Shown here: positions 28,303-60,345 of the stretch, piece after piece
Numbering within the stretch: the stretch's first letter is position 1
How the letters are laid out: every line of letters starts with the position of its first letter
DNA from: Coriobacteriia bacterium
GTDB taxonomy: Bacteria > Actinomycetota > Coriobacteriia > Anaerosomatales > PHET01
Length of the DNA: 64,000 nt
NCBI GenBank assembly: GCA_034370385.1
Contig: JAXMKZ010000022.1
Location: 4,027 to 68,026, forward strand
Direction of reading: 5' to 3'
The notes under the pieces: generated by a model
What the model was told of the DNA's origin: nothing
The model's input: only the letters and a program-made list of their open reading frames with translations
The model's database searches: none
Translations under genes and position numbers: made by a program

Positions 28303-29763
28303 TTGTCCGTTCGAGTCCGTTTCGCGCCCTCGCCCACAGGCACCCTCCACCTTGGAGGCGCACGAACCGCCATCTACAACTGGGCGTTTGCGCGCAGGAA
28401 CGCCGGCGTGCTCGTGCTGCGCATCGACGACACCGACCCCGAGCGCTCGACGGCCGAGAACACCGAGCAGATCCTTCGGTCGCTCAGGTGGCTTGGCGTT
28501 GACTGGGACGAGGGTCCTGAGGTCGGTGGCGACCACGGCCCGTACTTCCAGACGCAGCGTGGCCCCGCTTACGCGGACGCACTGGAGCGCATGAAGTCCA
28601 CCGGTAACGCCTACCCCTGTTTCTGCTCCCCCGACGAGCTCGCCGCCAAACGGGACCTCGCGAGGAGCGCCGGGGGATTCTCAGGCTACGATCGGACGTG
28701 CCGCGACGCCGCGGGCGCTCACGAACGAGTCGCCGCTGGCGAACCGCACGTGTGGCGCCTTGCGGTGCCGCTTGGCCGGGGTCCGGTCATTGTCGACGAT
28801 GCGGTACGTGGTGCCACCGAGTTCCCGATCGAAGCGATGGACGACTTCGTCCTTGCGCGAAGCGACGGATCTCCCACCTACAACTTCGCCACCGTTGTTG
28901 ACGATGCCACTATGGAGATCACGCACATCATCCGCGGCGACGATCACCTGGCCAACACCCCACGTCAGATCCTTGTGTTCGAGGCGCTGGGCCACGCGGT
29001 TCCGGCGTTTGCCCACCTGTCGATGATCTGGGGGGCGGACGGCAAGAAACTCTCCAAGCGTCACGGGGCCACCTCCGTCGAGGCGTACGAGGAGATGGGT
29101 TTCCTGCCCCAGGCGATGCTCAACTACCTTGCGCTGCTGGGCTGGTCTCTCGACGGCGAGACGACCATCGTTCCGCCCGAGGTTCTCAAGGCCACCTTCT
29201 CCCTGGATCGAATCTCCAAGAACCCGGCCATCTTCGATCCTGACAAGCTCGAGTGGATGAACGGTGCCTACCTTCGGGAGATGGGCGACGGTGAGTTCGT
29301 GGATGCGATCGCGCCCTGGCTGATCCGCGCAGGCCTGACTACCGCTCAGGACGTATCCGGGCGGCGCGACTGGTACCGCGCTCTGGCCCCGCTGATAGCC
29401 GAGCGTGTGAAGCGACTGGATGAAGTGGCCGAGAAGGTCAGGTTCTTCTTCGAGGAGCCCGTCATCGACGAAGACACCCGCGACAAGGTCCTCGCCAAGG
29501 AGGGCGCTCCCGAGGCACTTCAGGCGGCCGCAGATGCGCTCGAAGCATGCGACTTCACGGCATCGTCCATCGAAGAGGCGCTTCGTCTGGTCCCTGAGGC
29601 GGTGGGCGTGAAGCCCAAGGTGGCCTTCCAGGCTGTCCGCGTGGCAGTGACCGGTAGTACCGTGTCGCCTCCCCTTTTCGAGACGCTTGAGCTGCTGGGG
29701 AAGCAGACGTCGCTTGCCCGCATCGAAGCTGCCCGTGTACTGCTCAGTCAGCCTCGCATCTGA
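28303..29763 (+). CDS. gltX: Glutamate--tRNA ligase
   Basis: 486 aa, TTG start. Contains RFAPSPTGTLHLGGARTA (HIGH region) and KLSKRHG (KMSKS). Confidence 0.92.
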   Translation: MSVRVRFAPSPTGTLHLGGARTAIYNWAFARRNAGVLVLRIDDTDPERSTAENTEQILRSLRWLGVDWDEGPEVGGDHGPYFQTQRGPAYADALERMKSTGNAYPCFCSPDELAAKRDLARSAGGFSGYDRTCRDAAGAHERVAAGEPHVWRLAVPLGRGPVIVDDAVRGATEFPIEAMDDFVLARSDGSPTYNFATVVDDATMEITHIIRGDDHLANTPRQILVFEALGHAVPAFAHLSMIWGADGKKLSKRHGATSVEAYEEMGFLPQAMLNYLALLGWSLDGETTIVPPEVLKATFSLDRISKNPAIFDPDKLEWMNGAYLREMGDGEFVDAIAPWLIRAGLTTAQDVSGRRDWYRALAPLIAERVKRLDEVAEKVRFFFEEPVIDEDTRDKVLAKEGAPEALQAAADALEACDFTASSIEEALRLVPEAVGVKPKVAFQAVRVAVTGSTVSPPLFETLELLGKQTSLARIEAARVLLSQPRI

Positions 29764-29829
29764 GTTGACAGTGGCTCAGGGCGTCGGTAGGATACCTTCT
29801 CGCGCCGCGGCTCGGCGCAGGCAAGGTAC

Positions 29830-29905
29830 AGGGGTATGGTGTAACTGGCAACACGCCGGATTCTGGTTCCGGAGAGTCTAGGTTCGAGCCCTAGTACCCC
29901 TGCCA
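29830..29905 (+). tRNA. tRNA-Gln (anticodon CTG), CCA encoded
   Basis: Manually folded cloverleaf. Acceptor aggggta/tacccct, D arm gtgt/acac, anticodon arm ccgga-ttCTGgt-tccgg, T arm ctagg-ttcgagc-cctag, discriminator G, then CCA. Confidence 0.88.
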
Positions 29906-29910
29906 TGTAT

Positions 29911-29987
29911 GGCCCGTTCGTCTAGCGGTTTAGGACACCGCCCTCTCAAGGCGGAGATCACGGGTTCGAATCCCGTACGGGCTACCA
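29911..29987 (+). tRNA. tRNA-Glu (anticodon CTC), CCA encoded
   Basis: Manually folded cloverleaf. Acceptor ggcccgt/acgggct (G1-U72), anticodon arm ccgcc-ctCTCaa-ggcgg, T arm acggg-ttcgaat-cccgt, discriminator A, then CCA. Confidence 0.88.
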
Positions 29988-29994
29988 CGAATTC

Positions 29995-30027
29995 AGAAAC
30001 CCCCTTCTGACACAGAGGGGGGTTTCT
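29995..30027 (+). terminator. Strong hairpin after the tRNA pair (terminator or attenuator)
   Basis: agaaaccccc(ttct)-gacac-(agag)gggggtttct forms a ~14-bp stem. The 3' arm and tail are U-rich (gggggguuucuugcuau). The hairpin overlaps a possible TTG start (30027) and its GAGGGGGG RBS for glnS. Confidence 0.5.
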
Positions 30028-30044
30028 TGCTATCCTCACTCCCC

Positions 30045-31745
30045 ATGAACAGTGAAACGAGTCCCTCCCCCGAGCGTACCGACTTCATCCGCGAGATTGT
30101 GGCAGCTGACCTGCTCGAAGGACGCTGCGAGTCCGTTGTCACGAGGTTCCCGCCGGAGCCCAACGGGCATCTCCACATCGGCCACGCGAAATCCATCTGC
30201 CTGAACTTCGGCATCGCCAACGAGTTCGGTGGCCGATGCCACCTGCGCATGGACGACACCAACCCCGTCAAGGAAGAGCAGGAGTACGTCGACGCGATTC
30301 AGACCGACGTGCGCTGGCTGGGCTTTGACTGGGGCGAGCATCTGTACTTCGCCTCGGACTACTTCGAGCAGCTCTACGATTGGGCATGCCATCTGGTGAG
30401 TACCGGAAACGCGTACGTCGACGACCTCACCGCCGAGGAGATTCGCGAGCATCGCGGCACGCTCAAGGACCCGGGCAAGCCCAGCCCGTGGCGCGATCGT
30501 TCGCCTGAGGAGAACCTCGAGTTGTTCGCCCGAATGCGTGCCGGAGAGTTCGCAACCGGCGAGAAGGTCCTTAGGGCGCGCATCGATATGGCTTCCGGCA
30601 ACATCAACCTGCGCGATCCGATCATCTATCGCATCATGCACGCGGAGCATCCTCGCACGGGTGACACGTGGTGCATCTATCCCACGTATGATTTCGCACA
30701 TGGTCAGTCCGATGCGATCGAACACATTACTCATTCGGTATGCACGCTGGAGTTCCAGGACCACCGACCACTGTACGACTGGTTCATCGAGCATCTTCCG
30801 GTGCCTTCGACGCCTCACCAGTACGAGTTCGCACGTCTCAATCTGACGCACACGGTGCTTTCCAAGCGCGTGTTGCTCCGGCTTGTGAACGATGAGCACG
30901 TGCGCGGCTGGGATGACCCCCGCATGCCGACTCTGTCGGGGCTGCGGCGACGCGGCTTTCCCGCCCAGGGACTTCGCGACTTCGCCGCGATGATCGGCGT
31001 GGCCAAGTCTGACGGGGTCGTCGAGATCGAGATGCTGGAACACTGCGTTCGCAGCGTGCTGAATCGCACCGCTCAGCGTCGTTTCGCAGTCCTTGACCCG
31101 CTGAAGGTCGTGATCGAGAACTTCCCCGAGGGACTCGTCGAGATGATGGATGCACCCAACAACCCGGAGGATCCGGACGCCGGAACCCGTGAAGTGCCGT
31201 TCACGCGCGAGCTGTGGATCGAGCGCGAGGACTTCATGGAGGACCCCCCCAAGAAGTTCTTTCGTCTGGCTCCGGGACGCGAGGTTCGGCTGCGGTCCGC
31301 GTACTTCATCACCTGCAACGAGGTCATCAAGGATCCGATGGGCAAGGTGATCGAGCTGAGGTGTAGCTACGATGAGTCGACACGCGGGGGCTCAGCTCCC
31401 GACGGGCGGCGACCCAAGGCAACGCTTCACTGGGTTTCGGCGGCACATGCGATCGAGGCCGAAGTCAGGCTGTACGACCACCTGTTCGCCGTTGCCTACC
31501 CTGGCTCCGAAGGTCGTGACCTCTTCGACGATCTCAATCCGGCATCAGAAACGATTGAGCGCGGTTGCTTCGTCGAGGCATCGTTGCTCCAGGTTCCCGT
31601 GGGCCAGACCGTCCAGTTCGAGCGGGTAGGATACTTCTGCCCTGATCCGGACTCCGGGAGCGGTGCCCTCGTCTTCAACCGCACGCTGTCACTTAAGGAC
31701 TCCTGGGCCAAGCTGCAGTCCCAGGGCCGTCACGACGCGCCGTAG
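30045..31745 (+). CDS. glnS: Glutamine--tRNA ligase
   Basis: TDFIREIV...[25 protein letters not shown] (HIGH) and LTHTVLSKR (KMSKS variant), collinear with E. coli GlnRS as recalled. An ATG at 30045 (no SD) or a TTG at 30027 (SD inside the hairpin) are alternative starts. Confidence 0.9.
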
Positions 31746-31789
31746 CGCTCACTGGGGCGGCCACGGGGTATCGGGCTGCTAGAATGGGC

Positions 31790-32142
31790 GACGGAGTGGG
31801 CCAGACGGCCGCGCGATCCCGTTTCGGGTTCGTGAGGAAAGTCGGGGCTCCACAGGGCAGGGTGCCTGCTAACGGCAGGGCGCGGCGACGCGACGGAAAG
31901 TGCCACAGAAAAGAAGACTCCCCCGCCGCAAGGCGGGAGAAAAGCTGAAACGGTGCGGTAAGAGCGCACCAGCGTCACGGCAACGTGGCGGCTTGGCAAA
32001 CCCCACCCGGAGCAAGGGCAAATAGGAGCGGCCAAGGTCGGCCCGACCGACGCTCGGGTTAGCCCGCGTGAGGCGTACGGCGACGTGCGTCCCAGATAGA
32101 TGGTCGTCCACGACAGAACCCCGCTTACCGGCCCACTCCAAG
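31790..32142 (+). ncRNA. rnpB: RNase P RNA, bacterial type A
   Basis: Contains GAGGAAAGTCGGGGCTCCACAGGGCAGGGTGCC, GAAAGTGCCACAGAAAAGA, GGTAAGAGCGCACCAG and ACAGAACCCCGCTTACCGGCC. The P1 pairing is ggagtgggcc / ggcccactcc. An extended -10 promoter (tgcTAGAAT, 31777-31785) lies ~7 nt upstream of the 5' end. Ends are approximate to +/-10 nt. Confidence 0.92.
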
Positions 32143-32153
32143 CGGGTGAGACA

Positions 32154-32188
32154 CGAAGGCCGGCCCCGAATCCTCGGGCCGGCCTTCG
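32154..32188. terminator. Hairpin between rnpB and the convergent giant gene
   Basis: cgaaggccggccc-(9 nt)-gggccggccttcg forms a 13-bp GC-rich stem. U-tracts are weak on both strands. Confidence 0.5.
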
Positions 32189-32209
32189 TTGCACATTCTG
32201 GAGTTCGTA

Positions 32210-35200
32210 TCAGTAGTAGACGATCTGAACGGTGTCGGGCCCGAGCTTGATCATGTCGAAGAACTTGACTCTGGCTGAGCCCGAGTACGTCCTCACGTTA
32301 TTGACGGGGTCAGTGAGCCTGACGCTCCACTTGACGCTTCGGAACTGAGATCCTGACGTGCGCGCGGGAACGGTGTATTTCACCGTGTAGCTACTGCCTG
32401 CTTTGACGATGGTGTTCCTGACCCGCTTGCCGTCGATCGTCACGACCATCCTGCCGTACTGAGAGATCTTGCCGATCCTGACCGAGACGGTTCGCTTTGA
32501 GGCAGAGGAGCTGACCCGTGCTGAGGGCGCGGTCTTGTCGAGTATCACGGTTCGGTTCACCGTCGTGGTGTGGCCCATCCTGCTGTAGGCCGTGAGCGAC
32601 AGTGTGTGCCGGCCGCTAGAGAACTTCGTGAGGCTCGGCGTCAGCGTAGTAGAGATCGAGGTCCCTGCGGTGGACTTTGTCACCACGGTCTTGCCGTCGA
32701 GCTTCAAGACGAGCTTGGTCACGCCCGCACCGTCACTTGCCTTGACCGGGATCGAGGGCTTGGCACCGATAGCAGACGAGACGCTGCCGAAAGCAGCAGT
32801 GGGTGGAGCAGCGTCGACGTACGCGTAGTGCGTGCCGATGGGACCGTAGTTGCCCGCCCAGTCCTGCGCGCGGACCCGGAACGTGTGAACGCCATCAGTC
32901 AGTCCGTCTGCGGTGAACTTGGTGACATTCTGGCTGGTCTCCACCGCGGCAAGATCAGTGGCGGATGTGGACTTGGCGTTGACCGAAACCCAATACCGTG
33001 CAACACCGGAAAGTGAGTCCGCCGCCGGATTCCACTTGAACACACGCCGTGGGCTGGTGCTCCAGCTGGCGACGCCATCGTCGGGGGTTACGCCGGTTGG
33101 CGCGATGGTATCGACCAGAATCTGGCGACGGGCAACCGCCGAACCGATGGACCCGTTCTTCTCGCGACCGACTGCATGCAGGGTCCACGTGCCCTCGACG
33201 CTCGACATGCCCATTTCGTCGGCCACGCCACCAAGGTTGATGTTGAGGGAACCAGTCGCTGTGTAGTCGCTGCCAGCCGTTGGTACCGTGTTGGAAGACC
33301 GATCCATCACGTAGTAGTAGCCGTCACCGGACACGACATCAGGGGCCGCCAGAATCTGGCCTAGGAAGACGTATGTGTTCGCAAAAGACGTTTCACTCGG
33401 GTGTGACGTAGATGTGATGATCGGCCGCAGTCCGGACTTATCCAGGCTGATCGTACGGGTGAACACGCCTCGGTGGCCCAACAGGTCGTACGCCTCGATG
33501 GTCAAGGTATGCGGTCCCTGAGCGTACGAGGACAGGTTCGGAGTCATCGTGGTGGTCACCGAAGTTCCGGACACGTTCTGGCTCAGAAGGACCGTTCCAT
33601 CGATACTCAAGGTGATTCGGGTGACCTCAGCGCCGTCGGTGGCGCGGATAGTGAACGTCGGGGTGACACCGACCGGATCCGGAGGCTCGTTGACGAACAG
33701 CTCCGGTGGAGCGGCGTCGACGTAGGCCTTGTGTAGCCCGATGGCGCTGTAGTTGCCCGCCTTGTCACGAGCGCGCACGCGGAAGGTGTGGACGCCATCC
33801 GACAGGCCATCAACGGTGAACTGCGTGGTAGTGAGCGTGGTCTCAACCGCCGCCAGATCCGCCGGCGCCTCGGAGCTGGCGTTGATCGAAACCATGTAGT
33901 GCGAGAGCCCTGACAGCGCATCGACCGAGGGGGCCCAGGTGAAGGTTCTGCGGGGACTGGCCGTGTAGGTTGCGACACCGTCGTCCGGGACGGGCGTGGT
34001 CGGCGGCTCCATGTCTGCGAGGAACGGGTAGTCGACAGCGACGCTGACGTCGCCCAGTACATCCTTGGTTACGGCGTGGAGGTACCACTGCCCCCACGGC
34101 TCAGTACCAAGCTCCGTCGCGGCAGCCATGAGATCGACGGCAAGCGAGGTCCCGGTTGTGAACCCCCAGGTGGTCGGAGTGAAGGCCGCGGTGGGCGACT
34201 TATCCAGGCGATAGTAGAAGCCCTCAACCCCGTCGAAATCCGCAGGAGGTTCAAGCTGTGCGTAGAAGTAGCGCGACGAACTGAACGTGCTCGTGGTCGG
34301 GTGTGAGACGCTCGTCACCTTCGGCGGATTGGGTGGCCCGTACTTCAGAATCTGGACCGTGTTGTCCCGCGCGTTGGCGACGACCACTTCAAGCGGCGCG
34401 TCCGCATCAAGCTGCGCGATGGCAACGGCGCTCGGCTGACGACCGACGTCGATGTCACCCAGGAAGCGCATAACCCCGTTATCCTGCTGCTTGTAGATTC
34501 CCACTGAACCCGTAGAACGCAAGAAGGCCGCGTCTCCCAGGTTGTAGCTGTTGGCAACGATGAGGTCGTTCCTCGAATCCTGGTTCAGGTCCCCGATGGC
34601 CACCGCAACGGGCGCCGGCGAAATGTCGTTGCCCGTGCGGAATGTGGTAGAGGGGGTGACGGGCGCGAGTTGACCGATCGAGTTCTGGTACGAGATTCCC
34701 ACCTGACCGGTCCTGTAAGAAGCTCCGACGACATCGTTGAGACCGTCACTATTGAGGTCACCGATCTTCACGTCGCGAATCTCGCCAAGTAGGTCGGGCT
34801 GTGAGAGTCCCACCGATAGGTTCGATTGCCCTCCGCGACCAAGGTAGAAAGGCAGGAAGCCACCGGACTGGAATCCGGCGATTCCGAAGTCAGGCCAGTT
34901 GTCACCGTTGACGTCTCCGATAGCCGCTGAGAACGGGTTGCCCAATCCGTCGACGATCGTTCGATGCGTGTTCCAATGGTCGCTGGAAACAGTCCGTGTC
35001 GTCCATGAGGCACCAGAGTCCGTTGTGACCAGAATGCGCCCACCGGCTGCAGAGATGGCACCGCGGCCACCCGTGTGGAAGCTGATTCCGCGAAGGTCGA
35101 CTGTGGCTCCAAACGGCGAAACTAGGGAGCTCCACGTCACACCGGCGTCAGTGGACCGATAGATGAGGCCGTCGTTTCCGACGGCCATCACGATAGAGTT

Positions 35201-36589
35201 GTCCGCCCAAGCGACGGCGCGCAGTTCATCGGTGATGCTGGCAGAGATCGCTGTGGCTGCTCCCGACCAAGACGCGCCCGAGTCCAGCAGCATACCAACC
35301 GAACCGCCCGGAAGACTGCTGTCACCAACAGCTACCGCGCGGTCACCCGCCGGACGGACGGCGATGGCATGAAGGTCTCCGGTGAGAGCGGTGACGGATA
35401 TCTCGGTTGAGCCCTGGAAGGCCTTGTTGGTCTGGAAGACAAAACCGCCAGCGCCGCAGGTCAGCAGCTCGCCCGGCGATGGAGAGGCCGCGCCCAGAAG
35501 ATTCACTAATGGCAATCTGTTCTCTTCTGACGGAACCTCCACTGCCGGATCCGGAAGCCTCGACACGTGTGCGACCTTGCCGCCCGGGCCAACGACAAAC
35601 GCACTGGACTCGGTGTCCCATACGATCGAGGTGGCGTAGGGTTGCTCAGCCGTCAGCTGAATGACCGGCCGCCACGTGGCGCCGTCGTTTCCGCTGTAGG
35701 CGATGAAGTTGTTTCGCATAGCCGCAAAGACGATGCGGCTGAACCGATTACCCGAGATCGTGCGAATGCCCGTGGTATCGAACACCTCGTCGGAGTTGTG
35801 CGAGCTGTCAGAGCGCGGGCTCCACAGGTATCGGGGGGGAATGGCGGCAGGGGACCCGTCATCCCCGACATCGGCCGCAATCGTGCTGAGCGGGAGGCCG
35901 TCGCCGTCAGTTCGTGCGGCAAGAAAGCCCTTGCGGGTCACGGTCATGCCATTGGTGACGGGCTCTCCGCCGCCGTCGACTGTCCGCCGATACACGATCG
36001 TGCCGCCCTCGTCGCCGTTGGCGAGCGAGTGGAAGACGGGGACGGCGATGCCGAGATTGCCCGGTGCGTCGACGGTGCCTACGTCGAACCCGAAGCCTGG
36101 CGCAGCAGGTCCGCTACTTACGAGCCAGTACGCGTCGTAATACGCGGGAAGCGACAACAGATAGTCGAAGCCGCCGGACGGGTTGCGCCGAAACACGTAC
36201 AGCTCCTGGCTCATGGAATCGCCGACGATCACTTCGGACAGATTGTCCCCGGTGATGACGTCAGCGATGAAGACCGATGCAGGCGCGCTGAAGACGTTCG
36301 TGCCAGGGGCGCCCGTGAGGGGAACCCGCACGCCAGGGCTGAATGCACCTCCTCCGCTCTGCAGAAGTACCGTGAAGGATCGATCGGCGTAGTTGGCCGT
36401 CACGATGTCCTTGAGGCCATCGCCGTTCACATCCCCGATAGCCAGACCCTTCGGGGAGGTCCCGACCGGCAAGGGGGGGCCAGGCCTCAGGGTCTTGGCG
36501 GGCGCGATCCCGACGGGGACCAAGACTACCACCAGAAGCGCGGACAACAACGCGCGCGCAACTGCGGACCATCCAGCACGGATGACCAT
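32210..36589 (-). CDS. Giant secreted protein (1459 aa): FG-GAP/VCBS-like repeats, BNR (Asp-box) repeats and tandem Ig/FN3-like modules
   Basis: Signal peptide (LLVVVLVPVGIAPA|K). FG-GAP-like IGDVNGDGLKDIV, IGDVNGDNWPDFGI, IGDLNSDGLNDVV and IGDLNQDSRNDLIV. Asp-boxes SGNDGATW, STDAGVTW and TTDSGASW. The C-terminal half consists of duplicated ~300-aa modules. RBS aacaggag. No LPXTG or lipobox seen. Confidence 0.85.
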   Translation of the reverse strand: MVIRAGWSAVARALLSALLVVVLVPVGIAPAKTLRPGPPLPVGTSPKGLAIGDVNGDGLKDIVTANYADRSFTVLLQSGGGAFSPGVRVPLTGAPGTNVFSAPASVFIADVITGDNLSEVIVGDSMSQELYVFRRNPSGGFDYLLSLPAYYDAYWLVSSGPAAPGFGFDVGTVDAPGNLGIAVPVFHSLANGDEGGTIVYRRTVDGGGEPVTNGMTVTRKGFLAARTDGDGLPLSTIAADVGDDGSPAAIPPRYLWSPRSDSSHNSDEVFDTTGIRTISGNRFSRIVFAAMRNNFIAYSGNDGATWRPVIQLTAEQPYATSIVWDTESSAFVVGPGGKVAHVSRLPDPAVEVPSEENRLPLVNLLGAASPSPGELLTCGAGGFVFQTNKAFQGSTEISVTALTGDLHAIAVRPAGDRAVAVGDSSLPGGSVGMLLDSGASWSGAATAISASITDELRAVAWADNSIVMAVGNDGLIYRSTDAGVTWSSLVSPFGATVDLRGISFHTGGRGAISAAGGRILVTTDSGASWTTRTVSSDHWNTHRTIVDGLGNPFSAAIGDVNGDNWPDFGIAGFQSGGFLPFYLGRGGQSNLSVGLSQPDLLGEIRDVKIGDLNSDGLNDVVGASYRTGQVGISYQNSIGQLAPVTPSTTFRTGNDISPAPVAVAIGDLNQDSRNDLIVANSYNLGDAAFLRSTGSVGIYKQQDNGVMRFLGDIDVGRQPSAVAIAQLDADAPLEVVVANARDNTVQILKYGPPNPPKVTSVSHPTTSTFSSSRYFYAQLEPPADFDGVEGFYYRLDKSPTAAFTPTTWGFTTGTSLAVDLMAAATELGTEPWGQWYLHAVTKDVLGDVSVAVDYPFLADMEPPTTPVPDDGVATYTASPRRTFTWAPSVDALSGLSHYMVSINASSEAPADLAAVETTLTTTQFTVDGLSDGVHTFRVRARDKAGNYSAIGLHKAYVDAAPPELFVNEPPDPVGVTPTFTIRATDGAEVTRITLSIDGTVLLSQNVSGTSVTTTMTPNLSSYAQGPHTLTIEAYDLLGHRGVFTRTISLDKSGLRPIITSTSHPSETSFANTYVFLGQILAAPDVVSGDGYYYVMDRSSNTVPTAGSDYTATGSLNINLGGVADEMGMSSVEGTWTLHAVGREKNGSIGSAVARRQILVDTIAPTGVTPDDGVASWSTSPRRVFKWNPAADSLSGVARYWVSVNAKSTSATDLAAVETSQNVTKFTADGLTDGVHTFRVRAQDWAGNYGPIGTHYAYVDAAPPTAAFGSVSSAIGAKPSIPVKASDGAGVTKLVLKLDGKTVVTKSTAGTSISTTLTPSLTKFSSGRHTLSLTAYSRMGHTTTVNRTVILDKTAPSARVSSSASKRTVSVRIGKISQYGRMVVTIDGKRVRNTIVKAGSSYTVKYTVPARTSGSQFRSVKWSVRLTDPVNNVRTYSGSARVKFFDMIKLGPDTVQIVYY
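32525..34321 (-). repeat. Intragenic tandem duplication (2 x ~900 bp / ~300 aa) within the giant gene
   Basis: aa ~757-1055 and ~1056-1355 are collinear. Examples: DDGVATYTASPRRTFTWAPSVDALSGLSHYMVSINA...DGVHTFRVRARDKAGNYSAIGLHKAYVDAAPP versus DDGVASWSTSPRRVFKWNPAADSLSGVARYWVSVNA...DGVHTFRVRAQDWAGNYGPIGTHYAYVDAAPP. The DNA copies are diverged but alignable by eye. Confidence 0.75.
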
Positions 36590-36687
36590 GACGACTCCTG
36601 TTCTACGACGACGAATGCTTCAACTACTGCGACGTGGTCAAGACGTATGCCTCACACTATACTCCACTCCCGCGTGCGCAAGCCACC

Positions 36688-38652
36688 TCACACACGCTCG
36701 CGTATCGTGCGCGCGAGGTCGCCACCTCCAAGCGACGCCAATCTCACATACTCCGCCCCCGACATGCGCGCTATCTCGCGAGCCGATCCGCCGCCAGCAG
36801 CTGATGCCGACGTGTCAATGAGCAGGGCGTTCACGCCGGCGGCGCGCAGCTTGACCGCGGCCGACTTCGCGTCATCGCTGCCGACGCCGCCATCCACGCC
36901 CACGTTCCCGCGGCCGTCGGTCACCAGCACGAGCCAGGGCACGGTATCAGGCTGCCTCCGGATCTCGGTTTCGAGTAGGAGTAGGGACTTCAAAATGCCG
37001 GCCGCGAGTGGAGTGGCACCACCGGTAGGAAGCCCCTGCAGTTTCAGGTTCGCCAGTTCGACGCTGCCAGTGGGCGCCAGGACGACGTCTGCGCCATTGC
37101 CCCTGAACGAGACAAGCGCAACCCTGTCACGACGCTGGTATGCGTCGACCAGCAACTCAAGCACAGCGGCCTTGGCAACCTCGATGCGCTTCGATGCCCC
37201 CATCGAACCGCTTGCATCCACACAGAACACGATTGAAGCCCCCACCTTGCGGGTGCGGACCTTCGTACGAATGTCGTCTGAGCCGACGGACACCGCGAGC
37301 CCGGAGTCAGCCGTGTCGTTGGGAGTCGCCGCTGCGGCCCGGATGGTGGCATCAAGGGCGACGTCGCCCATCCGCACGGCTCCCTTGGCCATCTCGGAGC
37401 GTGCGTACCGGCCCCGCCCGTCGTCAACGACGCTCTCCTGCCTCCGGCCGGCGATCGAGCGTCTCGTTCGGTCCATCGCCGACTCGAATGCCACGTCAGG
37501 CATAGCGGGTTCACTGGAAGCCGAATCGATCGAGCCCACCGACTCAAAGATGCTTGCCTGTCCCTGTCCCGGACCCGTCGGACTCGATGCGCTCGGCTCA
37601 CCCACGGGGCTGTCGCCCGATAGGGCTCGGACGAGCGAATCGCGCAGTGAGTCAGTGTCGGCGCGTACGTCATCGAACGGCATGCGCCGAAGCCGGTGCG
37701 CCAGAACCAAGGCCGCCACACTCTCAACGTCGGCAAGAGAGACCTCGCCGCGACCGTCAAGGGCCGCATGGGCCGCCGCGGCGCGTGCCATCACGCTGTC
37801 GGCACGGTGTCCGTCCACTTTCGCGCGTATCGCAAGGTCTGCGATCGCGTAGAGGATCTCCTCGGGTGTCTTGACGGTGCCTGCGCGCAGTTGGGAATGC
37901 TTGATCCGAGTCCGCAGCTCTCCCTCAGCGTCCTCCCAAGAACGCGCGAAGCCCGTCGGGTCCTCTTCGAAGTCGTGACGGCGACGCATGATCTCGACGC
38001 GCGCCTCCGGCTCCCTCATCGCTTCCACCTCGACACACAGCCCGAACCGATCGAGCAGCTGCGGACGAATGTCGCCTTCCTCGGGATTCATCGTCCCAAC
38101 CAGAATGAAGCGCGCAGGATGCTGCAGGGAAACGCCCTCACGCTCCACGGTGTTCACGCCCATGGCAGCGGCGTCGAGCAGGGTGTCGACGAGGTGATCG
38201 TCAAGGAGGTTGACCTCGTCGACGTAGAGGATGCCGCGGTTCGCCGCTGCAAGAAGACCGGGATGGAACTCACGCTCTCCCCTCTTGAGCGCCGCCTCGA
38301 AGTCGAGCGTCCCCACCAGACGGTCTTCCGTGGCAGACACGGGCAACTCGACGATGTGTGGAAGGCGCGACTCCTTGGGCAACGTGCCCTCTTCACGCCT
38401 CTCGCGGCATTCCGTGCACCATGACGAGGGCTCTGCAGGGTCGCAGCCGAAGCGACACCCGCTTACGACAACGATCGCGGGCAGCACGCTGGCGAGCGCG
38501 CGAACTGCGGTCGACTTGGCCGTGCCCTTCTCGCCGCGAATCAGGACGCCGCCGACGCGGGGGTCGACCGCGTTGAGGATGAGTGCCGCCTTCAGTGCCT
38601 CCTGGCCGACGATGGCCGAGAACGGGAACGTCTGTACCGGCCTTGGGGTCAC
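36688..38652 (-). CDS. ChlI/ChlD-type chelatase-like fusion: N-terminal AAA+ ATPase plus C-terminal vWA (MIDAS) domain
   Basis: [16 protein letters not shown], Walker [10 protein letters not shown], the Cys-rich ChlI insertion GCRFGCDP...CTECR, Walker [23 protein letters not shown], and v[14 protein letters not shown]. The GTG at 38652 is preferred (TGA-cGGGAGccca-GTG junction with the upstream gene); the track ATG at 38745 would overlap that gene by 83 nt. Confidence 0.85.
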
Positions 38653-38662
38653 TGGGCTCCCG

Positions 38663-39823
38663 TCACATCCACTGGAACGACCCGCAGCTGGCAGGGTCAC
38701 GCTGGCCCTTGTTGGGACACGTGTCGTGGTAGACGCAGTCATCACAGGTCATCGTGTCGAGCGGATCTGTGGCCACAACGGGCGGAAGGTCGACGAAATC
38801 CGAGTCACCCGCCACCGTCGAACTGACGTCGAGGTCATCGGAAACCTGGGCGGACTCGCCTGCGGTCGGATCCGCGGCAGCTGAGTCGCCCGTGTTGTCG
38901 GCCGCCGGCAGGCTCGCGGGCGACGAAGGCGGAATCACCGGCGGGACAGGAATCTCGGGCTTGTGCGGCTCGCTGACAGGTGACGATTCGGCACCATCCG
39001 GCCCCGGTGCAGACTGATCATCAGCCGCGGGAGGCAGCAATACGTCGACCTCAGACACGGTAGCGACCTCGTCGTACGCGCCGAGAATGACCGGGCGGGA
39101 CGACGCCATCGTCGCATCATCCCCAGGTGCTCTCACGAGCGAACCCTCGTCGTCTCCCGGCTCGTCCAGAGCATCGAGATCAAGCGGCGAGACATCCGGC
39201 TTAACGGCCCAAGGCCAAGAGCCTTCGTCGGCACCCTCGATCTGGGCCTCAACCACCATGGCGTCTGACGGAGGCTCCGCGAGCGGGTCGGCGCCCTCAT
39301 CGACCGGCTCCTCCTCGGCGGGCAGATCGGGTTCGTCGGGCTCAACCGGCCCGACGGACTCGGGAGCCACGATGCCCTCGGCCTCCAGACTGACCGCGGA
39401 CCGGCGGAGCGCCTCCTTGAGGTCGGGGGCAGCGTCGCTCTCATCGTCCAGCCCCTCGATCACCGCGGCGAGCGACTCGTCCGCCTCATCGACGGTGGGT
39501 GTGGCCTGCGTATCGGCTGCGACAGCACCGTCATCCTCGGCCGGTTCACCCTCGGACGGCCCAACCTCGTCGGTCGGCCCAACCTCGTCGGCCGGCTCAA
39601 CCTCCTCGGGCTCAACAACCTGCGATGCCGCCGGCCTGACAAGAAGCACGGGGGTGGCAGCGTCCAGGTCCGCGACCAGTACCTCGCAATCCCACGCATC
39701 GAACCCGGGATCTGCCGTGACGCGCGATAGCTCGCTCATGGCACTGGCGCGGGTCTCGAAGACACCCTCAGCAAGGAGCCGGAGCGAATCGTCGGGTCCC
39801 TTTCCGATCAGGAAGAACGGCAT
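38663..39823 (-). CDS. Hyper-acidic, Pro/Ala/Val-rich (likely disordered) protein with a short folded-looking N-terminus and a C-terminal C-x2-C-x5-CP-x9-C motif
   Basis: 386 aa. The N-terminal ~70 aa [35 protein letters not shown]... are followed by a long D/E/P-rich region and the end ...[32 protein letters not shown]3-rich codons throughout. A promoter-like element lies upstream. Confidence 0.65.
39557..39610 (-). repeat. 18-bp tandem repeat x3 inside the acidic-protein gene
   Basis: cggcccaacctcgtcggt / cggcccaacctcgtcggc / cggctcaacctcctcggg, encoding ...[17 protein letters not shown]... Confidence 0.7.
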
Positions 39824-39948: not shown

Positions 39949-40809
39949 TCACGAGCACGCTACACGAAGCGCCTTGAGGCGAGCGATGTTGGTCGCATCC
40001 TTCTCGGGCACCTCGCCCGGCATCTCGGTGACCACGGGAACCTGCGCAAGATCGGGCTCGCAGATCATGGCACGGAAGCCCTCGGTTCCGATGGAGCCAT
40101 CGCCTATCCACGCATGTCGGTCACGGTGGCTACCCCGGTCGAACATGCAGTCGTTGGCGTGAATGAGTCCGACCCGGTCCAGCCCAAGGACCTCTCTCAT
40201 CTCTGACACCAGCTCGACCCAGCCCACCGAAGTGGACAGGTCGTCCCCGAATGCGAAACCGTGGCATGTGTCGAAGCAGATGCCAATCACCTCAGGCGGC
40301 AACTCCGTGGCTGCGATCACTGAGGCCAGCTCCCTCACCGAGCCGCCGAACGTGCTCCCGGCTCCCGCGGTGTTCTCGAGGAGCAGCCGCGCACGGTCAG
40401 GACTGACTGCCGCGAGTTCATACGCCTCGGTGATCGCTTTCCCGCAGCGGACGGCCGCGACCACGGGATCGGCCTTCGGGTCGGTCCCGAGGTGGGTCAC
40501 AACCCCATCGACCCCAAGTGCTGCACCTCGACGCAGTTCGTCAGCCAATGCGACCACGGATTTCTCGCGCATGATCGGATCGTCCGTGGTCAGGTTGATG
40601 AGGTAGGCGGTGTGAGTGAACACGGGACCGAATCCTCGTGCCGCTCTATCGGCCACGAACGCTTGGGCCGCGTCCGAATCCAGCGCCGCGCCCTTCCACT
40701 GCCGAGGGCTCTTCGCGAAGAGCTGGATGCACTCGCATCCCACGTCTTGGGCATAGTCGAGTGCGGCACCATAGCCCTTCGAGACCGACACGTGCGCTCC
40801 TATGAGCAT
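39949..40809 (-). CDS. nfo: Endonuclease IV (AP endonuclease family 2)
   Basis: MLIGAHVSVSKGYGAALDYAQDVGCECIQLFAKSPRQW is collinear with the start of E. coli Nfo as recalled, and metal-ligand His/Asp/Glu positions are present. The ATG at 40809 is preferred over the track start at 40848. Confidence 0.88.
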   Translation of the reverse strand: MLIGAHVSVSKGYGAALDYAQDVGCECIQLFAKSPRQWKGAALDSDAAQAFVADRAARGFGPVFTHTAYLINLTTDDPIMREKSVVALADELRRGAALGVDGVVTHLGTDPKADPVVAAVRCGKAITEAYELAAVSPDRARLLLENTAGAGSTFGGSVRELASVIAATELPPEVIGICFDTCHGFAFGDDLSTSVGWVELVSEMREVLGLDRVGLIHANDCMFDRGSHRDRHAWIGDGSIGTEGFRAMICEPDLAQVPVVTEMPGEVPEKDATNIARLKALRVACS

Positions 40810-40873
40810 GCGACTCCCGTCACGAGGGGCAGTTAGGACCTGGTCCATTCTACCCGTACAGCGGATACACTCG

Positions 40874-42130
40874 ATGGTGTCAGTGCAACCGCAAGAGGTG
40901 ACAGTTTCAGTGATCGACGTCGATGCGACGATTCTTCCTCCGTGGAGCGCCCGCGCGCTTCTGCACGTGGATTTGGACGCCTTCTTCGCCGCCGTCGAGC
41001 AGCTGGATCACGCCGAGTGGCGCGGCCGACCGGTCATCGTGGGGGGTCACAGCTCTCGACGAGGGGTGGTATCGACCGCAAGTTACGAGGCACGCGCTTT
41101 CGGCGTGCATTCGGGCATGCCCTCGGTCAGGGCCGCCTCGCTGTGTCCCGATGCGGTGTGGGCGCCACCCCGGTTCTCGCGGTACAAGGAGCTTTCCGAT
41201 GCGGTGTTTCGCATCTTCGAGCACCACGCGGCCCTCGTGCAGCCTGTGTCTGTGGACGAGGCATTCCTTGACGTCACCTCCGGGCGCTACGCAGGCGAGC
41301 ATCCCGTAGAGATCGCCCGCCGGATCAGGGCCGATGTCGCGCTTCTTGGGCTTACCGCCTCGGTGGGAGTTGCGACATCCAAGACGGTGGCCAAGATCGC
41401 ATCAGACCACGACAAACCCGATGGTCTCACCGTGGTGTGGCCCGGTGAGGAGGCGCAGTTCCTGGCGCCCCTGCCGGTTCGCGCCATGGGCGGCATCGGA
41501 CCCCGAACCACGGATCGGCTTCAGGCCCTGGGAATCCACACCCTGGGGAGCCTGGCTGCGCTCGACGAGATGACGGCCCGTTCGGTGCTTGGCGTGGATG
41601 GCCTCGGTTACGTGCTCCGCGCCCAAGGGGTAGATCCGAGTCCCGTTCGAGACAACGAGGCCGTGAAGTCGGTCTCGAAGGAGAGAACCTTCGCTACGGA
41701 CAAGCGCACCGTGGCAGAGGTTGAGCATGAACTCCAAGACCTTGTCTCGCGAGTATGCTCGCGCCTGCGGTCCAAGGGAGTCGCCGGACGAACCGTGACG
41801 GTGAAGCTTCGTTTCGGCGACTTCACCACGCGCACAGCCCGCAAGACGCTTGCCGACTCAACGAACGATGAGACTATCGTGGGCGAGGTCGCCCTCGACC
41901 TCTTGCGGGATACGTGGTCGGCCGGGGTGGGGCTGCGTTTACTTGGCGTCGGCGTCTCGGGGCTTTCCACACCCGCCACGCAGTTGGACCTGTTCGGGGC
42001 GGACCCGGCCGTAACAAAGGTAGGGCGAACCGGACTGGTGGAGAACATCGATGCGATTCGGAAGAGGTTTGGGCATGATGCGGTACGATTCGGCACCGAG
42101 CTAACCGATCGCAAGGGTCCCGAGAGATGA
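40874..42130 (+). CDS. dinB: DNA polymerase IV (Y-family), catalytic residues present
   Basis: LHVDLDAFFAAVEQ, SVDEAFLDVT and the little-finger region. ATG at 40874 (MVSVQPQ...); the track start at 40802 overlaps the divergent nfo. Confidence 0.88.
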   Translation: MVSVQPQEVTVSVIDVDATILPPWSARALLHVDLDAFFAAVEQLDHAEWRGRPVIVGGHSSRRGVVSTASYEARAFGVHSGMPSVRAASLCPDAVWAPPRFSRYKELSDAVFRIFEHHAALVQPVSVDEAFLDVTSGRYAGEHPVEIARRIRADVALLGLTASVGVATSKTVAKIASDHDKPDGLTVVWPGEEAQFLAPLPVRAMGGIGPRTTDRLQALGIHTLGSLAALDEMTARSVLGVDGLGYVLRAQGVDPSPVRDNEAVKSVSKERTFATDKRTVAEVEHELQDLVSRVCSRLRSKGVAGRTVTVKLRFGDFTTRTARKTLADSTNDETIVGEVALDLLRDTWSAGVGLRLLGVGVSGLSTPATQLDLFGADPAVTKVGRTGLVENIDAIRKRFGHDAVRFGTELTDRKGPER

Positions 42131-46100: not shown

Positions 46101-46514
46101 CTCGGGCCCACGCAGATGAGTACGGGAGAGCAACCGACACAAGTTGCGATAGCCGGCGAAATCGCGCGCGAGCACCGTCAGATGAAAACCGAACGCCGAC
46201 GCGCGACCGAATCCCACCCGTGCCGGAAGAACGAGACGCGACTCGGGCGGCAGATCGGCCTCCTCGCCAAGCACGCCGGCGGCTTCAACGACGATCTCGC
46301 AACCGATGATCGGAGCGATGCCGGCATCCCTACAGGCGCGATAGAAGCGGATGGCACCCGAAAGACCCTGATGGTCCGTGAGCGCCAGAGCGGGCATCTC
46401 GAGCTCCGCCGCACGCTCCACGAGCGCGGGTAACGGACAGGCGCCGTCGTGGAAGCTGAAGTTGGAGTGTGTATGCAGGTGCACAAAGGCCGTCGACACG
46501 GGAACCCGTCCCAC
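43134..46514 (-). CDS. dnaE2: Error-prone DNA polymerase III alpha-like subunit (DnaE2/ImuC-type)
   Basis: 1126 aa, GTG start. The N-terminal PHP domain starts FVHLHTHSNFSFHDGA, and the alpha-subunit palm/fingers are present. The length and the LexA-box-controlled operon context fit DnaE2 rather than replicative DnaE1. Confidence 0.8.
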   Translation of the reverse strand: MGRVPVSTAFVHLHTHSNFSFHDGACPLPALVERAAELEMPALALTDHQGLSGAIRFYRACRDAGIAPIIGCEIVVEAAGVLGEEADLPPESRLVLPARVGFGRASAFGFHLTVLARDFAGYRNLCRLLSRTHLRGPEVPSVVSLRDLEHFGEGLIALSGCGNGEAALSVAHARPGRARSALMRLANCFEPGAFFVELVHPLTAESPRIIGGLVEAADDLSFPVVATNDVHYLRPEGHRIHDVLASVGARMALPGPYDRPNAELWLKSPTEMRRLFAGCERACDATLEIASMCADFELPLGQFHFPGADLPRGETAYSVLAKESWRGLERRYSPMIPEAIRRLQHELTLIDQMGFAEYFLVVKEIVDFAKAKRIRCSGRGSAGDSIVAFALGITDADPIAHDLLFERFLNPERRQMPDIDVDFDSARRDEVIEFIYRRFGSEHVAMVATVQTTTARSAVRIAARAFGLPIAEVNSLSRYLPWVSARKIREVLETYPECRDHPLHEARYAPILEIAEQLDRTPTHLGTHLGGFIITRDPVASWMPLQWAAKGVVVSQYDKDDIEALGLVKMDILGLRMHSAISSAVEMARERVGVAAVPEPFELPKDDPRVYEMIAAADSVGMFQLESSGQRNLSTRLKSNRFEDIIAQISLFRPGPLEAEMITPFIRRRHGIEPVTVPHENMREVLADSYGVIVYQEQVLLVAREVAGFTLAEADSLRRAMTKGRSREQMEAIRAHFLEKAMARGVDAEVAAEVFRQLEGFAAYGFNKAHAACFAVVSYASAWLKTYYPAEFSCAILNHEPMGFYTPRLVVNDARRHGIEILAPHVNDSAVDHTVASDGAAIRIGLKDVHAMTARLLATVPVERAVRPFRDLADFVRRTRAELPAAESLIRIGALDGLGTTGAGRPPTRDEMLALLPELKAVIAREGVAGDDTLCLAPARIRPPEDPDHVSGWGVARRLSAELELTGLSLTSHPLDLAEADLIARGVTFARDLRGLPDRTRVRVAGVRERAQTPRTRSGKRTCFLTLEDATGLLDVVVFEDALQRAGDAIVKHRAYLVDGTLQNNHERGLAIVAEDVRPYVVRSPGGSPVRLRRGVPSGPMGPSLGGAGAPEEESWAAAESETAGA

Positions 46515-46958: not shown

Positions 46959-46995
46959 CGACCCCGGTTGATCGCGCGTGACGCGCCACGGTTCG

Positions 46996-47024
46996 ACTAT
47001 ACCGAACATATGTTCGGTCTACAA
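46996..47024 (-). promoter_or_regulatory. SOS promoter with embedded LexA (Cheo-type) box
   Basis: Minus strand: TTGTAG-accGAACATATGTTCgg-TATAGT, i.e. -35 and -10 hexamers separated by 17 nt. The spacer contains the perfect palindrome CGAACATATGTTCG (47003-47016). Confidence 0.8.
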
Positions 47025-60175: not shown

Positions 60176-60190
60176 CGCTGCGATGAACCT

Positions 60191-60304: not shown

Positions 60305-60345
60305 CACACCGAAGTCTAGCAGGTCAGCGACGGCAACCGCCAGCG

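Follow-up and report, generated by a model that had tools for sequence, protein, structure and literature searches.

The locus at 32210..36589 of the window, by which we mean the whole 64,000-nucleotide stretch of Coriobacteriia DNA analyzed, raises the question of whether one protein can carry a beta-propeller inside another and, if so, what such a protein does and whether it works with the genes beside it. The ORF list and translation gave a gene with an ATG start and 1459 codons plus a stop, with AGGAG 6 nt 5' of the ATG, for a putatively secreted protein of FG-GAP, BNR and Ig-like domains; this gene and all features given below with coordinates lie on the minus strand. The product is identical to NCBI MDZ4168997.1, which is annotated generically as an FG-GAP-like repeat-containing protein of a Coriobacteriia bacterium. 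Residues 1-31 (36497..36589), read heuristically, have the features of a signal peptide, namely a basic n-region, a hydrophobic core at aa 13-28 and an A-P-A/K motif, which follows the only hydrophobic segment in the hydropathy profile (aa 5-35). At the aligned position the three relatives described below read ASA/N, ASA/N and ALG/N, keeping an AxA-type site, and the protein is thus predicted to be Sec-exported and cleaved. An earlier note on this DNA had described a 1459-aa ORF with a signal peptide and without LPXTG, lipobox or cell-wall anchor; the ORF was confirmed, and regular-expression, hydropathy and Pfam searches of the protein found no LPXTG, lipobox, SLH domain or C-terminal transmembrane segment. 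The protein contains a single Cys (aa 378) and, as that note had read, ends in ...TVQIVYY. Since there is no recognizable anchor, attachment to the cell is an assumption, and simple release of the protein would be an alternative.

Pfam annotation of the whole protein gave FG-GAP_3 (PF13517) at 63.7 bits (cutoff 26.9) and FG-GAP (PF01839) at 40.1 bits (cutoff 22.1), and neither the FG-GAP nor the Asp-box assignment made earlier proved spurious. The FG-GAP matches fall into two blocks. The first, comprising the closing strand and blades 1-3 (aa 32-218; 35936..36496), scored 34.6 bits for FG-GAP_3 when scanned alone and contains a canonical Ca2+ loop at aa 53-61; in an AlphaFold (AF2) model of the head its strands lie at model positions 2-187, with pLDDT mostly 80-95. 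The second, comprising a return linker and blades 4-7 (aa 533-751; 34337..34993), scored 55.9 bits for FG-GAP_3 and 37.2 bits for FG-GAP, with three stretches each, and has 15 strands in the model and Ca2+ loops at aa 559-567, 611-619 and 667-675. A family profile searched against the PDB matched integrin alpha-V residues 225-361 (E 6e-5) and CRTAC1 (E 3e-9). None of the four canonical DxNxDGxxD loops varies among the four family members, while two further loops, at about aa 110-119 and 728-734, are degenerate and one FG-GAP blade has none, such that the earlier count of at least six calcium loops was slightly generous. The propeller would bind Ca2+ through these DxD/NxDGxxD hairpin loops. The DSSP string of the AF2 model places 1+12 FG-GAP strands ahead of the intervening region and 15 behind it, or 28 in total, equal to seven four-stranded blades, which probably close into one ring.

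The region between the two blocks begins with a low-confidence linker (aa 219-273; 35771..35935) that has pLDDT <50 at model positions 188-242 and a 10-residue indel relative to family member P0002. It is followed by a predicted six-bladed, Ycf48-like BNR/Asp-box propeller (aa 274-532; 34994..35770) with 24 strands in the AF2 model. The Asp-box pattern [ST]x[DN]xGx[ST]W occurs exactly three times, at aa 299-306, 479-486 and 522-529, as had been noted for aa ~299-529; composition shuffles gave 0.009 boxes expected per sequence and three or more in 0 of 20000 shuffles, and the alignment keeps all three boxes in 4/4 family members. A fourth box, at aa 434, is degenerate, with the Trp alone preserved. 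Scanned alone, the insert sits below the Pfam cutoffs (PSII_BNR 25.7 vs 27; Sortilin-Vps10 27.1 vs 33), and NF010237, the family of Ycf48 proper, reached 23.1 bits against an NCBIfam equivalog cutoff of 326. Searched against 5.8 billion proteins, the insert matched Ycf48-like propellers with E-values down to 6e-15; the family profile matched Ycf48/HCF136 in the PDB at E 2e-16 (5oj3), and relative P0127 bears an unmarked PSII_BNR match. Despite the sub-cutoff Pfam scores, these matches clearly point to homology between the insert and Ycf48-like propellers. The alignment used for structure prediction held the family members plus BNR fragments landing at aa 397-544, and the first half of the insert is represented by four sequences only; a mixed alignment with Ycf48-like proteins and FG-GAP fragments was dropped, because in it MAFFT stretched the Ycf48-like sequences across the FG-GAP blades and put every FG-GAP fragment in the wrong place.

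Blade counts were read from the DSSP string of the AF2 head model, which is of medium confidence (pLDDT 75.3, pTM 0.65). Its strand layout of 13/24/15, with low-confidence linkers exactly at both junctions, reads in the model as three blades, a nested six-blade propeller and then four blades. When aa 32-255 and 545-756 were artificially fused, the contiguous FG-GAP propeller of another protein (P0013) aligned across the fusion, indicating that both FG-GAP blocks belong to a single propeller. In Foldseek searches with the head model, the top PDB matches were all multi-propeller proteins, with E about 1e-14. The best of them, DDB1/CPSF160/SF3b130, Elp2 and Aip1, belong to the WD40-type scaffolds found inside eukaryotic cells; sequence identity is about 9%, TM-scores are low at about 0.2, and the resemblance of the head to DDB1-type scaffolds is topological only. 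The fusion alignment, the strand layout and the fold matches bear out the propeller-inside-propeller arrangement that the earlier note had proposed; the model places the six-blade insert between FG-GAP blades 3 and 4. Thus, sequence profiles and the AlphaFold model support a seven-bladed FG-GAP propeller split after blade 3 by a six-bladed BNR propeller.

If the model is right, the head is a clean natural case of a BNR propeller nested in an FG-GAP propeller, the two belonging to different superfamilies, and it adds to the few known cases of a domain inserted into an integrin-type propeller, among them the alpha-I domain and the beta-prism that, in the Bap1 crystal structure paper, is said to be inserted within the propeller. 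The closest parallel in layout is the integrin alpha subunit with an alpha-I domain, which likewise has an FG-GAP propeller of seven blades with Ca2+ hairpin loops of the DxDxDGxxD pattern, an entire folded domain placed between two blades, and an N-terminal propeller head on a leg of beta-sandwich domains. In integrins, however, the insert is a VWA domain and lies between blades 2 and 3, whereas here it would be a six-bladed BNR propeller between blades 3 and 4, and the bacterial protein lacks a transmembrane segment and shares its compartment with no beta-subunit partner. The insert itself shares with its homologues Ycf48/HCF136 the placement of the Asp-boxes within the blade. Ycf48 is a free-standing seven-bladed lipoprotein that helps photosystem II assembly, in contrast with the nested insert, which has six blades in the model and whose host is a Coriobacteriia-class organism presumed to be non-photosynthetic. 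The arrangement would interest those who study propeller evolution or catalogue adhesin head domains in uncultured Actinomycetota, although it is a structural curiosity that neither brings a new mechanism nor answers a long-standing question.

C-terminal to the head, aa ~790-1082 align with aa ~1090-1375 over 293 aa at 43% identity (E 1e-78), bearing out the two ~300-aa modules with Ig-like units described earlier; BLAST of the whole protein against itself returned the identity match alone, and the sequence had to be split. Module 1 (aa 752-1052; 33434..34336), delimited by the internal duplication and a segment Pfam scan, has three units: unit 1 (SHP...YY.D...WY.HA) is without a Pfam family, unit 2 gave a weak Big_13 match below cutoff, and unit 3 is of Big_7/Big_13 type. 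In the whole-protein scan both Big_13 and Big_7 exceed their Pfam cutoffs, and an exhaustive search found stalk-like units in 7139 proteins. Module 2 (aa 1053-1356; 32522..33433) has three beta-sandwich domains and falls just under the cutoff for NF047446 (39.6 bits vs 40). The AF2 model of aa 1052-1459 contains four beta-sandwiches, with pLDDT 95 both overall and in module 2, and in Foldseek searches it resembled the tandem Ig/FN3 extender rods of adhesins, with matches to the MpIBP extender (4p99, E 9e-12), the RTX adhesin extenders 6xi1 and 6xi3, GhpA and fibronectin.

The fourth sandwich in this model is the C-terminal domain (aa 1357-1459; 32213..32521; nine strands, pLDDT 89-97), which appears to be a diverged FlgD_ig-like domain and ends in a conserved V-Q-I-V-Y-Y strand. 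The C-termini of P0127, P0229 and P0184 exceed the Pfam FlgD_ig cutoff; a segment scan of the window protein's own C-terminus gave zero Pfam matches, and hhalign related it to those FlgD_ig-type C-termini with 88.5% probability (E 2.7e-6). We also considered whether the protein is a Type IX secretion cargo and found this unsupported, as the C-terminus has no CHU_C or Por_Secre_tail match above cutoff and its FlgD_ig/CHU_C-type kinship is seen by hhalign only. The host is annotated as Coriobacteriia, a Gram-positive class.

The full architecture is common to three relatives only, giving four family members in all. In their alignment the number of stalk modules varies, with one in P0229, two in the window protein and in P0002, and five in P0127. 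In distant pairs the large proteins are 31-38% identical where the products of the adjoining genes are 54-66% identical, and such rapid divergence is typical of exposed surface proteins. A metagenome scan with the motifs DFDG[VI][EA]GF and G[DQE]WY[LIF]HAV recovered the P0002 contig again and one partial unit-1 match. The whole-protein homologue search was dominated by giant FG-GAP repeat proteins and contained one true relative, the search with an N-terminal family profile yielded single-domain relatives alone and did not recover known members, and a GTDB genome scan with generic FG-GAP loop patterns gave at least 80 unrelated FG-GAP loci (L003-L082), which are uninformative on distribution.

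We consider the 1459-aa protein to be probably a Sec-exported, non-enzymatic, head-and-stalk protein that binds a ligand in a Ca2+-dependent manner at the cell surface or in the matrix. The head (aa 32-751) would offer two ligand-binding propeller faces on a single rigid unit, and the stalk (aa 752-1356), with six tandem beta-sandwich domains in two three-domain modules, would keep it off the C-terminus. The FlgD-Ig-like sandwich at aa 1357-1459 would most likely be the point of non-covalent attachment to envelope or matrix, or else of self-association. Ycf48-type propellers have protein ligands rather than glycans, so that either a polysaccharide or a protein could be the class of ligand bound; the ligand would come from the cell's own matrix or from the environment, and the protein would most likely act as an adhesin or a matrix cross-linker. 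The adhesive, surface-protein half of the earlier suggestion of an "adhesin or enzyme-like surface protein" fits the Ig-rod stalk and its variable module number. As a head-and-stalk binding protein it would behave in an ordinary way.

Two groups of known proteins resemble this proposal. Vibrio cholerae Bap1 and RbmC are also secreted bacterial proteins, and their Velcro-closed, eight-bladed propeller binds matrix exopolysaccharide and is paired with a beta-prism lectin as a further binding domain, making the adhesin two-sided (PMC10102183). They differ in blade number and in the partner of the propeller, which here has seven blades and another propeller as partner; they lack a long Ig-like stalk, and no close sequence relationship to the 1459-aa protein was detected. 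Fibrillar adhesins and periscope proteins (SasG, Aap, Sgo_0707), together with the MpIBP extenders, likewise combine an N-terminal head with an Ig-like rod, and their repeat number varies among orthologues (PMC8201768, PMC9210967). In contrast with these, the protein described here lacks both an LPXTG sortase signal and any other type of anchor that is known, what it repeats is a heterogeneous module of three domains, with 43% identity between copies, rather than a series of near-identical tandem copies, and its head type is new.

The alternative that survives best, although we think it unlikely, is that the protein is released freely and serves as a structural protein of the matrix or of S-layer type, its C-terminal sandwich self-assembling rather than anchoring it. 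No covalent or membrane anchor was found by the searches above, the conserved terminal strand motif is also present in unrelated giant repeat proteins, and Bap1 and RbmC work as a secreted "double-sided tape" in the matrix (PMC10102183). This alternative is, however, a variant of the surface-binding explanation that the present data do not distinguish from it; moreover, S-layer homology and lattice-forming domains are absent, and the rarity of the family, with four members found, does not fit a core component of the envelope. As a lesser reading, the conserved FlgD-Ig-like domain and its terminal V-x-I-V-Y-Y strand might serve Gram-positive Actinomycetota as a new signal for envelope sorting or attachment.

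We also weighed whether the large protein, whose surface-binding role we favor, acts together with its upstream neighbors. What had been taken as one neighbor at 36688-39823 is in fact two genes. The nearer (36688..38652) encodes a 654-aa ChlI/ChlD-fusion AAA+-VWA protein without a signal peptide (Pfam Mg_chelatase, AAA_lid_2 and VWA), whose best match is a putative cobaltochelatase family (TIGR02442, 723.9 bits vs cutoff 779.45). The farther (38663..39823) encodes an acidic, largely low-complexity 386-aa protein with a C-terminal four-Cys motif that belongs to no known family in the Pfam, NCBIfam and PADLOC scans. The 98-nt spacer between the AAA+-VWA gene and the large gene (36590..36687) holds a TATAGT box and the AGGAG, and a -10-like box of its own may precede the large gene; no terminator-like site was found in the spacer, in agreement with the earlier reading. 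The suggested linkage predicted that the adjacency would be conserved, and the large gene lies directly downstream of the AAA+-VWA gene in 4/4 genomes. This adjacency sits within a longer syntenic block in related genomes, running from a Y-family polymerase gene to rnpB. Given this wider block, the lack of a signal peptide on the AAA+-VWA protein and its match to a putative cobaltochelatase, a functional link between the two genes is unproven.

It would be a long shot for the large protein and the two upstream genes to form one system, in which the VWA/MIDAS domain engages the FG-GAP propeller in the manner of an integrin beta-I domain, or the AAA+ motor matures or loads the large protein before export. 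The order acidic protein, AAA+-VWA protein, large protein is kept on a single strand in 4/4 genomes despite 31-38% identity of the large protein in distant pairs, and the nfo and RNase_T/UvrC_M neighbors come and go. The terminator-free spacer fits as well, and no cobN or B12 genes lie within 64 kb to account for a cobaltochelatase, a family whose cutoff the chelatase-like protein misses. The block, however, reaches unrelated housekeeping genes on both sides, in 4/4 genomes a Y-family polymerase gene on the upstream side and convergent rnpB on the downstream side, such that the adjacency may be synteny inherited among related genomes. Moreover, the AAA+-VWA and acidic proteins have no signal peptides while the large protein is predicted to be exported, the rates of evolution are very unequal (57-80% vs 31-57% identity), the TATAGT/TATACT box 5' of the large gene suggests a separate promoter, and the trio matches no PADLOC or other system model. 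A defense system was likewise rejected on zero PADLOC matches. A longer shot still is the specific version in which the acidic four-Cys-tail protein, the ChlI/ChlD-type AAA+-VWA protein and the nested-propeller protein are one unit, with an AAA+-driven MIDAS VWA acting on or pairing with the integrin-alpha-type propeller. Were it true, prokaryotes would have in this trio an equivalent of the integrin alpha/beta head, or else machinery dedicated to maturing a surface adhesin; as it stands, the conserved, unexplained upstream gene pair is a small separate puzzle.

Least probable, to the point that we set it aside, is that the BNR insert works catalytically, as a sialidase or GH74-like glycoside hydrolase, within a secreted carbohydrate-active enzyme with binding modules, and with it goes the enzyme-like half of the earlier suggestion. 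Asp-box propellers do include sialidases and xyloglucanases, and there were weak matches to two entries, the "glycosylhydrolase" family F510_1955 at 28.3 bits and 2cn2, a GH74 xyloglucanase, at E 3e-4. The F510_1955 score, however, is far under the NCBIfam cutoff of 175 bits, no GH family match came near its cutoff, and the nearest relatives by a wide margin are the non-enzymatic Ycf48-like proteins. A sialidase or glycoside hydrolase in the BNR region should also show conserved catalytic residues, and none is conserved across the four members: the alignment of the insert shows neither an Arg triad nor a nucleophilic Tyr/Glu pair, and an acid/base Asp and a FRIP motif are missing as well. The only invariant polar or charged residues in aa 255-545 are R478, D481 and D524, the others being hydrophobic, Gly or Trp; since these three lie in or beside Asp-boxes, a sialidase or glycosidase role is unsupported.

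Downstream of the large gene, we weighed a 154-aa ORF as a further operon member but discarded it, the stretch being RNase P RNA on the other strand. Between the large gene and the convergent rnpB, 23 nt past the stop codon, a GC-rich hairpin (GAAGGCCGGCCC / GGGGCCGGCCTTC; 32155..32187) was read from the sequence. It is likely a terminator without a T-run, and a counterpart is present in 3/3 relatives.

The gene for the large protein (32210..36589, minus strand; 1459 residues from an ATG start, with AGGAG 6 nt 5' of the ATG) is the biggest in the 64-kb window, as the earlier note had stated. Its product is identical to NCBI MDZ4168997.1, titled [quoted passage not shown] and encoded on a 118.8-kb contig; the G+C content of the window is ~64% all along, and composition does not break at the gene. 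Hydropathy analysis identified a sole hydrophobic segment, at aa 5-35, with a basic start and then A-P-A↓K, and in a four-way alignment the matching site reads ASA↓N in two of the three relatives and ALG↓N in the third. Together, the lone N-terminal segment, its basic start, and the matched site make the previously proposed signal peptide, of the cleavable Sec type, likely on this heuristic reading. Neither LPXTG nor a lipobox occurs anywhere in the sequence, in agreement with the earlier note, and the protein contains a single cysteine.

The first search returned P0002 (57% identical) as the sole full-length relative, and an exhaustive search with one stalk module added two proteins sharing the entire N-terminal architecture, P0127 (2292 aa; alignment spanning residues 33-756, E 6.6e-65) and P0229 (1134 aa). 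No further members were found among the matches listed from a profile search and from scans of GTDB genomes and of metagenomes; generic FG-GAP matches dominated the profile search and the GTDB scan. It is thus fair to call the family rare, with at least four members, in which the stalk modules number 2, 2, 5, and 1.

Pfam matches over their cutoffs were obtained for FG-GAP_3 (63.7 bits), FG-GAP (40.1), Big_13 (53.8), and Big_7 (24.4). Canonical integrin-type calcium loops lie at aa 53-61, 559-567, 611-619, and 667-675, and their acidic positions are invariant across the four proteins. Two more loops (~aa 110-119 and 728-734) have degenerate sequences, and one blade lacks a loop altogether, so the earlier count of "at least six" was a little generous. 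The three Asp-boxes ([ST]x[DN]xGx[ST]W; aa 299, 479, and 522) were all present as described and are kept in all four family members; 0.009 would be expected by chance, and none of 20000 composition-preserving shuffles contained three or more. While the FG-GAP assignment was borne out by Pfam, the insert between the two FG-GAP blocks (aa 250-548), scanned alone, fell just below the cutoffs for PSII_BNR (25.7 vs 27) and Sortilin-Vps10 (27.1 vs 33). Yet 90 matches were found for the insert among 5.8 billion proteins, with E down to 6e-15, essentially all of them Ycf48-like BNR propellers of ~350 aa, and the profile of the four-member family matched solved Ycf48/HCF136 structures with E 2e-16 to 5e-15. 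Despite the sub-cutoff Pfam scores, sequence comparison thus gives solid support for homology of the insert to Ycf48-like BNR propellers, with the similarity concentrated at aa 430-535, in the final two or three blades of the insert, and the first half divergent.

The earlier note had proposed a propeller inside a propeller, and two lines of evidence agree with this. First, when aa 32-255 and 545-756 were artificially fused, residues 731-1071 of the unrelated protein P0013, which form a contiguous FG-GAP propeller, aligned over the fusion, as one split propeller predicts; the FG-GAP part of the family profile also matched CRTAC1 (E 3e-9) and integrin alpha-V residues 225-361 (E 6e-5). Second, an AlphaFold2 model of the head (aa 32-756; mean pLDDT 75.3, pTM 0.65), built from alignment A6 of the four family members and 22 correctly placed BNR fragments, has a layout of three blades, a six-blade insert, and four blades. 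In its secondary-structure string, one N-terminal strand is followed by the 12 strands of blades 1-3 (aa 46-218), and a first linker (aa 219-273, pLDDT <50) leads to the insert (aa 275-532), whose 24 strands make six blades with pLDDT mostly 70-94. A short, low-confidence second linker (aa 534-546) precedes blades 4-7 (aa 552-751), whose 15 strands make four blades together with that N-terminal strand, which closes the ring. The model thus reads as a seven-bladed FG-GAP propeller with a six-bladed BNR propeller predicted to be inserted between blades 3 and 4, where the strand pattern, not coordinates, is the basis for placing the insertion point exactly and for taking the ring as closed. The canonical Ca2+ loops are located between strands 1 and 2 of their blades in the model, just as integrin Ca2+ loops lie between the first two blade strands. 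The top Foldseek matches in the PDB were all multi-propeller proteins (Pwp2, Elp2, Aip1, DDB1, CPSF160, and SF3b130; E ~1e-14), with low TM-scores because the relative propeller orientation differs.

The earlier note had left open whether this was an adhesin or an enzyme-like surface protein. The invariant residues of aa 255-545 in the four-way alignment are those of the hydrophobic core, glycines, and the Asp-box Asp, Gly, and Trp, and the sole invariant charged residues (R478, D481, and D524) lie in or adjoining Asp-boxes. This alignment shows no conserved Arg triad, Tyr/Glu pair, or FRIP motif in the insert, and the only "glycosylhydrolase" family match, F510_1955, scored 28 bits against a cutoff of 175. 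We therefore consider the enzyme reading unsupported, while the adhesin-like nature stands.

The two duplicated modules of ~300 aa described previously are 43% identical across 293 residues (E 1e-78), and segment scans divided each into three units. Unit 1 matches no Pfam family and carries the motifs S-x-S-H-P, Y-Y-x-x-D, and W-Y-x-H-A; unit 2 matches Big_13 weakly and, in module 2, also an OmpL47-type domain at 39.6 bits vs a cutoff of 40; and unit 3 matches Big_7/Big_13. Searched exhaustively against 1.84 billion representatives, one module matched 7139 proteins at E <= 1e-3, with 253 remaining at E <= 1e-30; giant multi-repeat proteins predominate, and the units are therefore common building blocks. 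That each module contains Ig-like units, as the earlier note held, agrees with the Big_13 and Big_7 matches and with an AlphaFold2 model of aa 1052-1459 (alignment A8; pLDDT 95.0, pTM 0.76), in which four beta-sandwich domains span aa 1052-1160, 1169-1258, 1264-1350, and 1358-1458. Its best Foldseek matches were tandem Ig/FN3 rods, led by the Marinomonas ice-binding adhesin extender 4p99 (E 9e-12), with further matches to the RTX adhesin extenders 6xi1 and 6xi3, the grappling-hook protein GhpA, and fibronectin. The last domain had no Pfam match in a segment scan but aligned by hhalign with the C-terminal domains of relatives (88.5% probability, E 2.7e-6), which score above the FlgD_ig cutoff. 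In one relative the cutoff for CHU_C, a type IX secretion signal, is passed too, though the lineage is annotated as Gram-positive. After this FlgD_ig-like sandwich, the protein ends in a strand, [VI]-x-[IV]-[IV]-[YP]-[YHR] (32213..32260, minus strand), similar in P0127, P0229, P0184, and P0185, including two otherwise unrelated giant repeat proteins.

Overall, the feature is real and its earlier description accurate. The interpretation in the earlier note proves half right, since it holds for the architecture and the adhesin-like character but not for an enzyme. The best-supported reading, in which we infer ligand, localisation, and anchoring, is of a non-catalytic binding protein that is secreted, depends on Ca2+, and has the build of a fibrillar adhesin: a double-propeller head would sit on an Ig-like stalk of orthologue-variable length, and the C-terminal sandwich may attach the protein or let it self-associate. 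Its parts have precedents in integrin alpha subunits, whose FG-GAP propeller contains an inserted domain and stands on a beta-sandwich leg; in periscope proteins and fibrillar adhesins (PMC8201768, PMC9210967); and, for a propeller plus a second domain, in Vibrio cholerae Bap1/RbmC, where a propeller that binds exopolysaccharide occurs together with a beta-prism lectin (PMC10102183). The novelty lies in the particular pairing, with a BNR propeller nested inside one of the FG-GAP type, for which a limited literature check found no description; we regard the protein as a structural curiosity of modest interest.

Upstream, 36688-39823, the interval named in the earlier note, contains two minus-strand genes. 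The first (36688..38652; 654 aa) encodes a ChlI/ChlD-fusion AAA+-VWA protein with Mg_chelatase, AAA_lid_2, and VWA domains, whose best NCBIfam match, TIGR02442 putative cobaltochelatase, is just under cutoff (723.9 vs 779.45 bits). The protein has an insert with four cysteines, GCRFGCDP...WCTECR, and neither cobN nor B12 (cobalamin) genes were found within the 64-kb window. The second (38663..39823) encodes a 386-aa acidic protein matching no family, with a ~65-aa N-terminal domain, a long acidic Pro-rich region that includes the conserved motifs WPWA and SRPVI(L/M)GAY, and a C-terminal TCDDCVYxxTCPxxxxxxPxxCGxFQW motif. Neither protein has a signal peptide, and PADLOC returned zero matches. 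All four genomes share one gene order on a single strand, in which the acidic protein gene lies 10-80 nt upstream of the AAA+-VWA gene and the gene for the large protein follows; the arrangement that the earlier note named as contrary to linkage, relatives in which the two genes are never adjacent, was therefore not seen. A Y-family polymerase is likewise upstream in 4/4 genomes, whereas nfo is missing in one and two have an RNase_T/UvrC_M gene. Identity is 57-80% for the AAA+-VWA protein and 54-66% for the polymerase; the large protein has 31-57%. The data at hand do not separate conserved adjacency from inherited synteny. As the earlier note had observed, no terminator-like site was found in the 98-nt spacer before the large gene (36590..36687). 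A TATAGT box ~70 nt before its ATG (TATACT in the closest relative) could be its promoter, and all four genomes keep GTCGTAG.A..AGGAG beside the start codon.

Downstream, a convergent class A RNase P RNA (31793..32143, plus strand; 282.7 bits) lies 66 nt from the large gene; RNase P RNA is convergent with the large gene and just beyond its end in 4/4 genomes (in the relatives' loci, L001 14391..14564, L083 16960..17153, and L084 11132..11272). A 154-aa ORF overlying it on the opposite strand (31730..32194, minus) is therefore spurious. In each of the three relatives the contig ends inside the RNase P RNA gene, as does the Logan contig from the sample that yielded the window, which looks like an assembly break at conserved sequence. 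At 28303..31745 (plus strand), the genes for GluRS and a GlnRS-type synthetase flank those for their two cognate tRNAs, tRNA-Gln(CTG) and tRNA-Glu(CTC), in that row. Elsewhere in the window, the Y-family polymerase (IMS; 40802..42130, plus), a DnaE2-like error-prone polymerase (43134..46514, minus), and a DUF6504 protein (46515..47009, minus) form a mutasome-like cassette that adjoins nfo (39949..40848) and is syntenic in the relatives. The 415-aa product of 14098..15345 (minus) contains an rve integrase core domain and is probably an insertion sequence transposase. An FMN riboswitch (60187..60306, minus; 114 bits) precedes a riboflavin operon, one gene of which encodes a RibBA fusion (DHBP synthase/GTP cyclohydrolase II; 57128..58363, minus).
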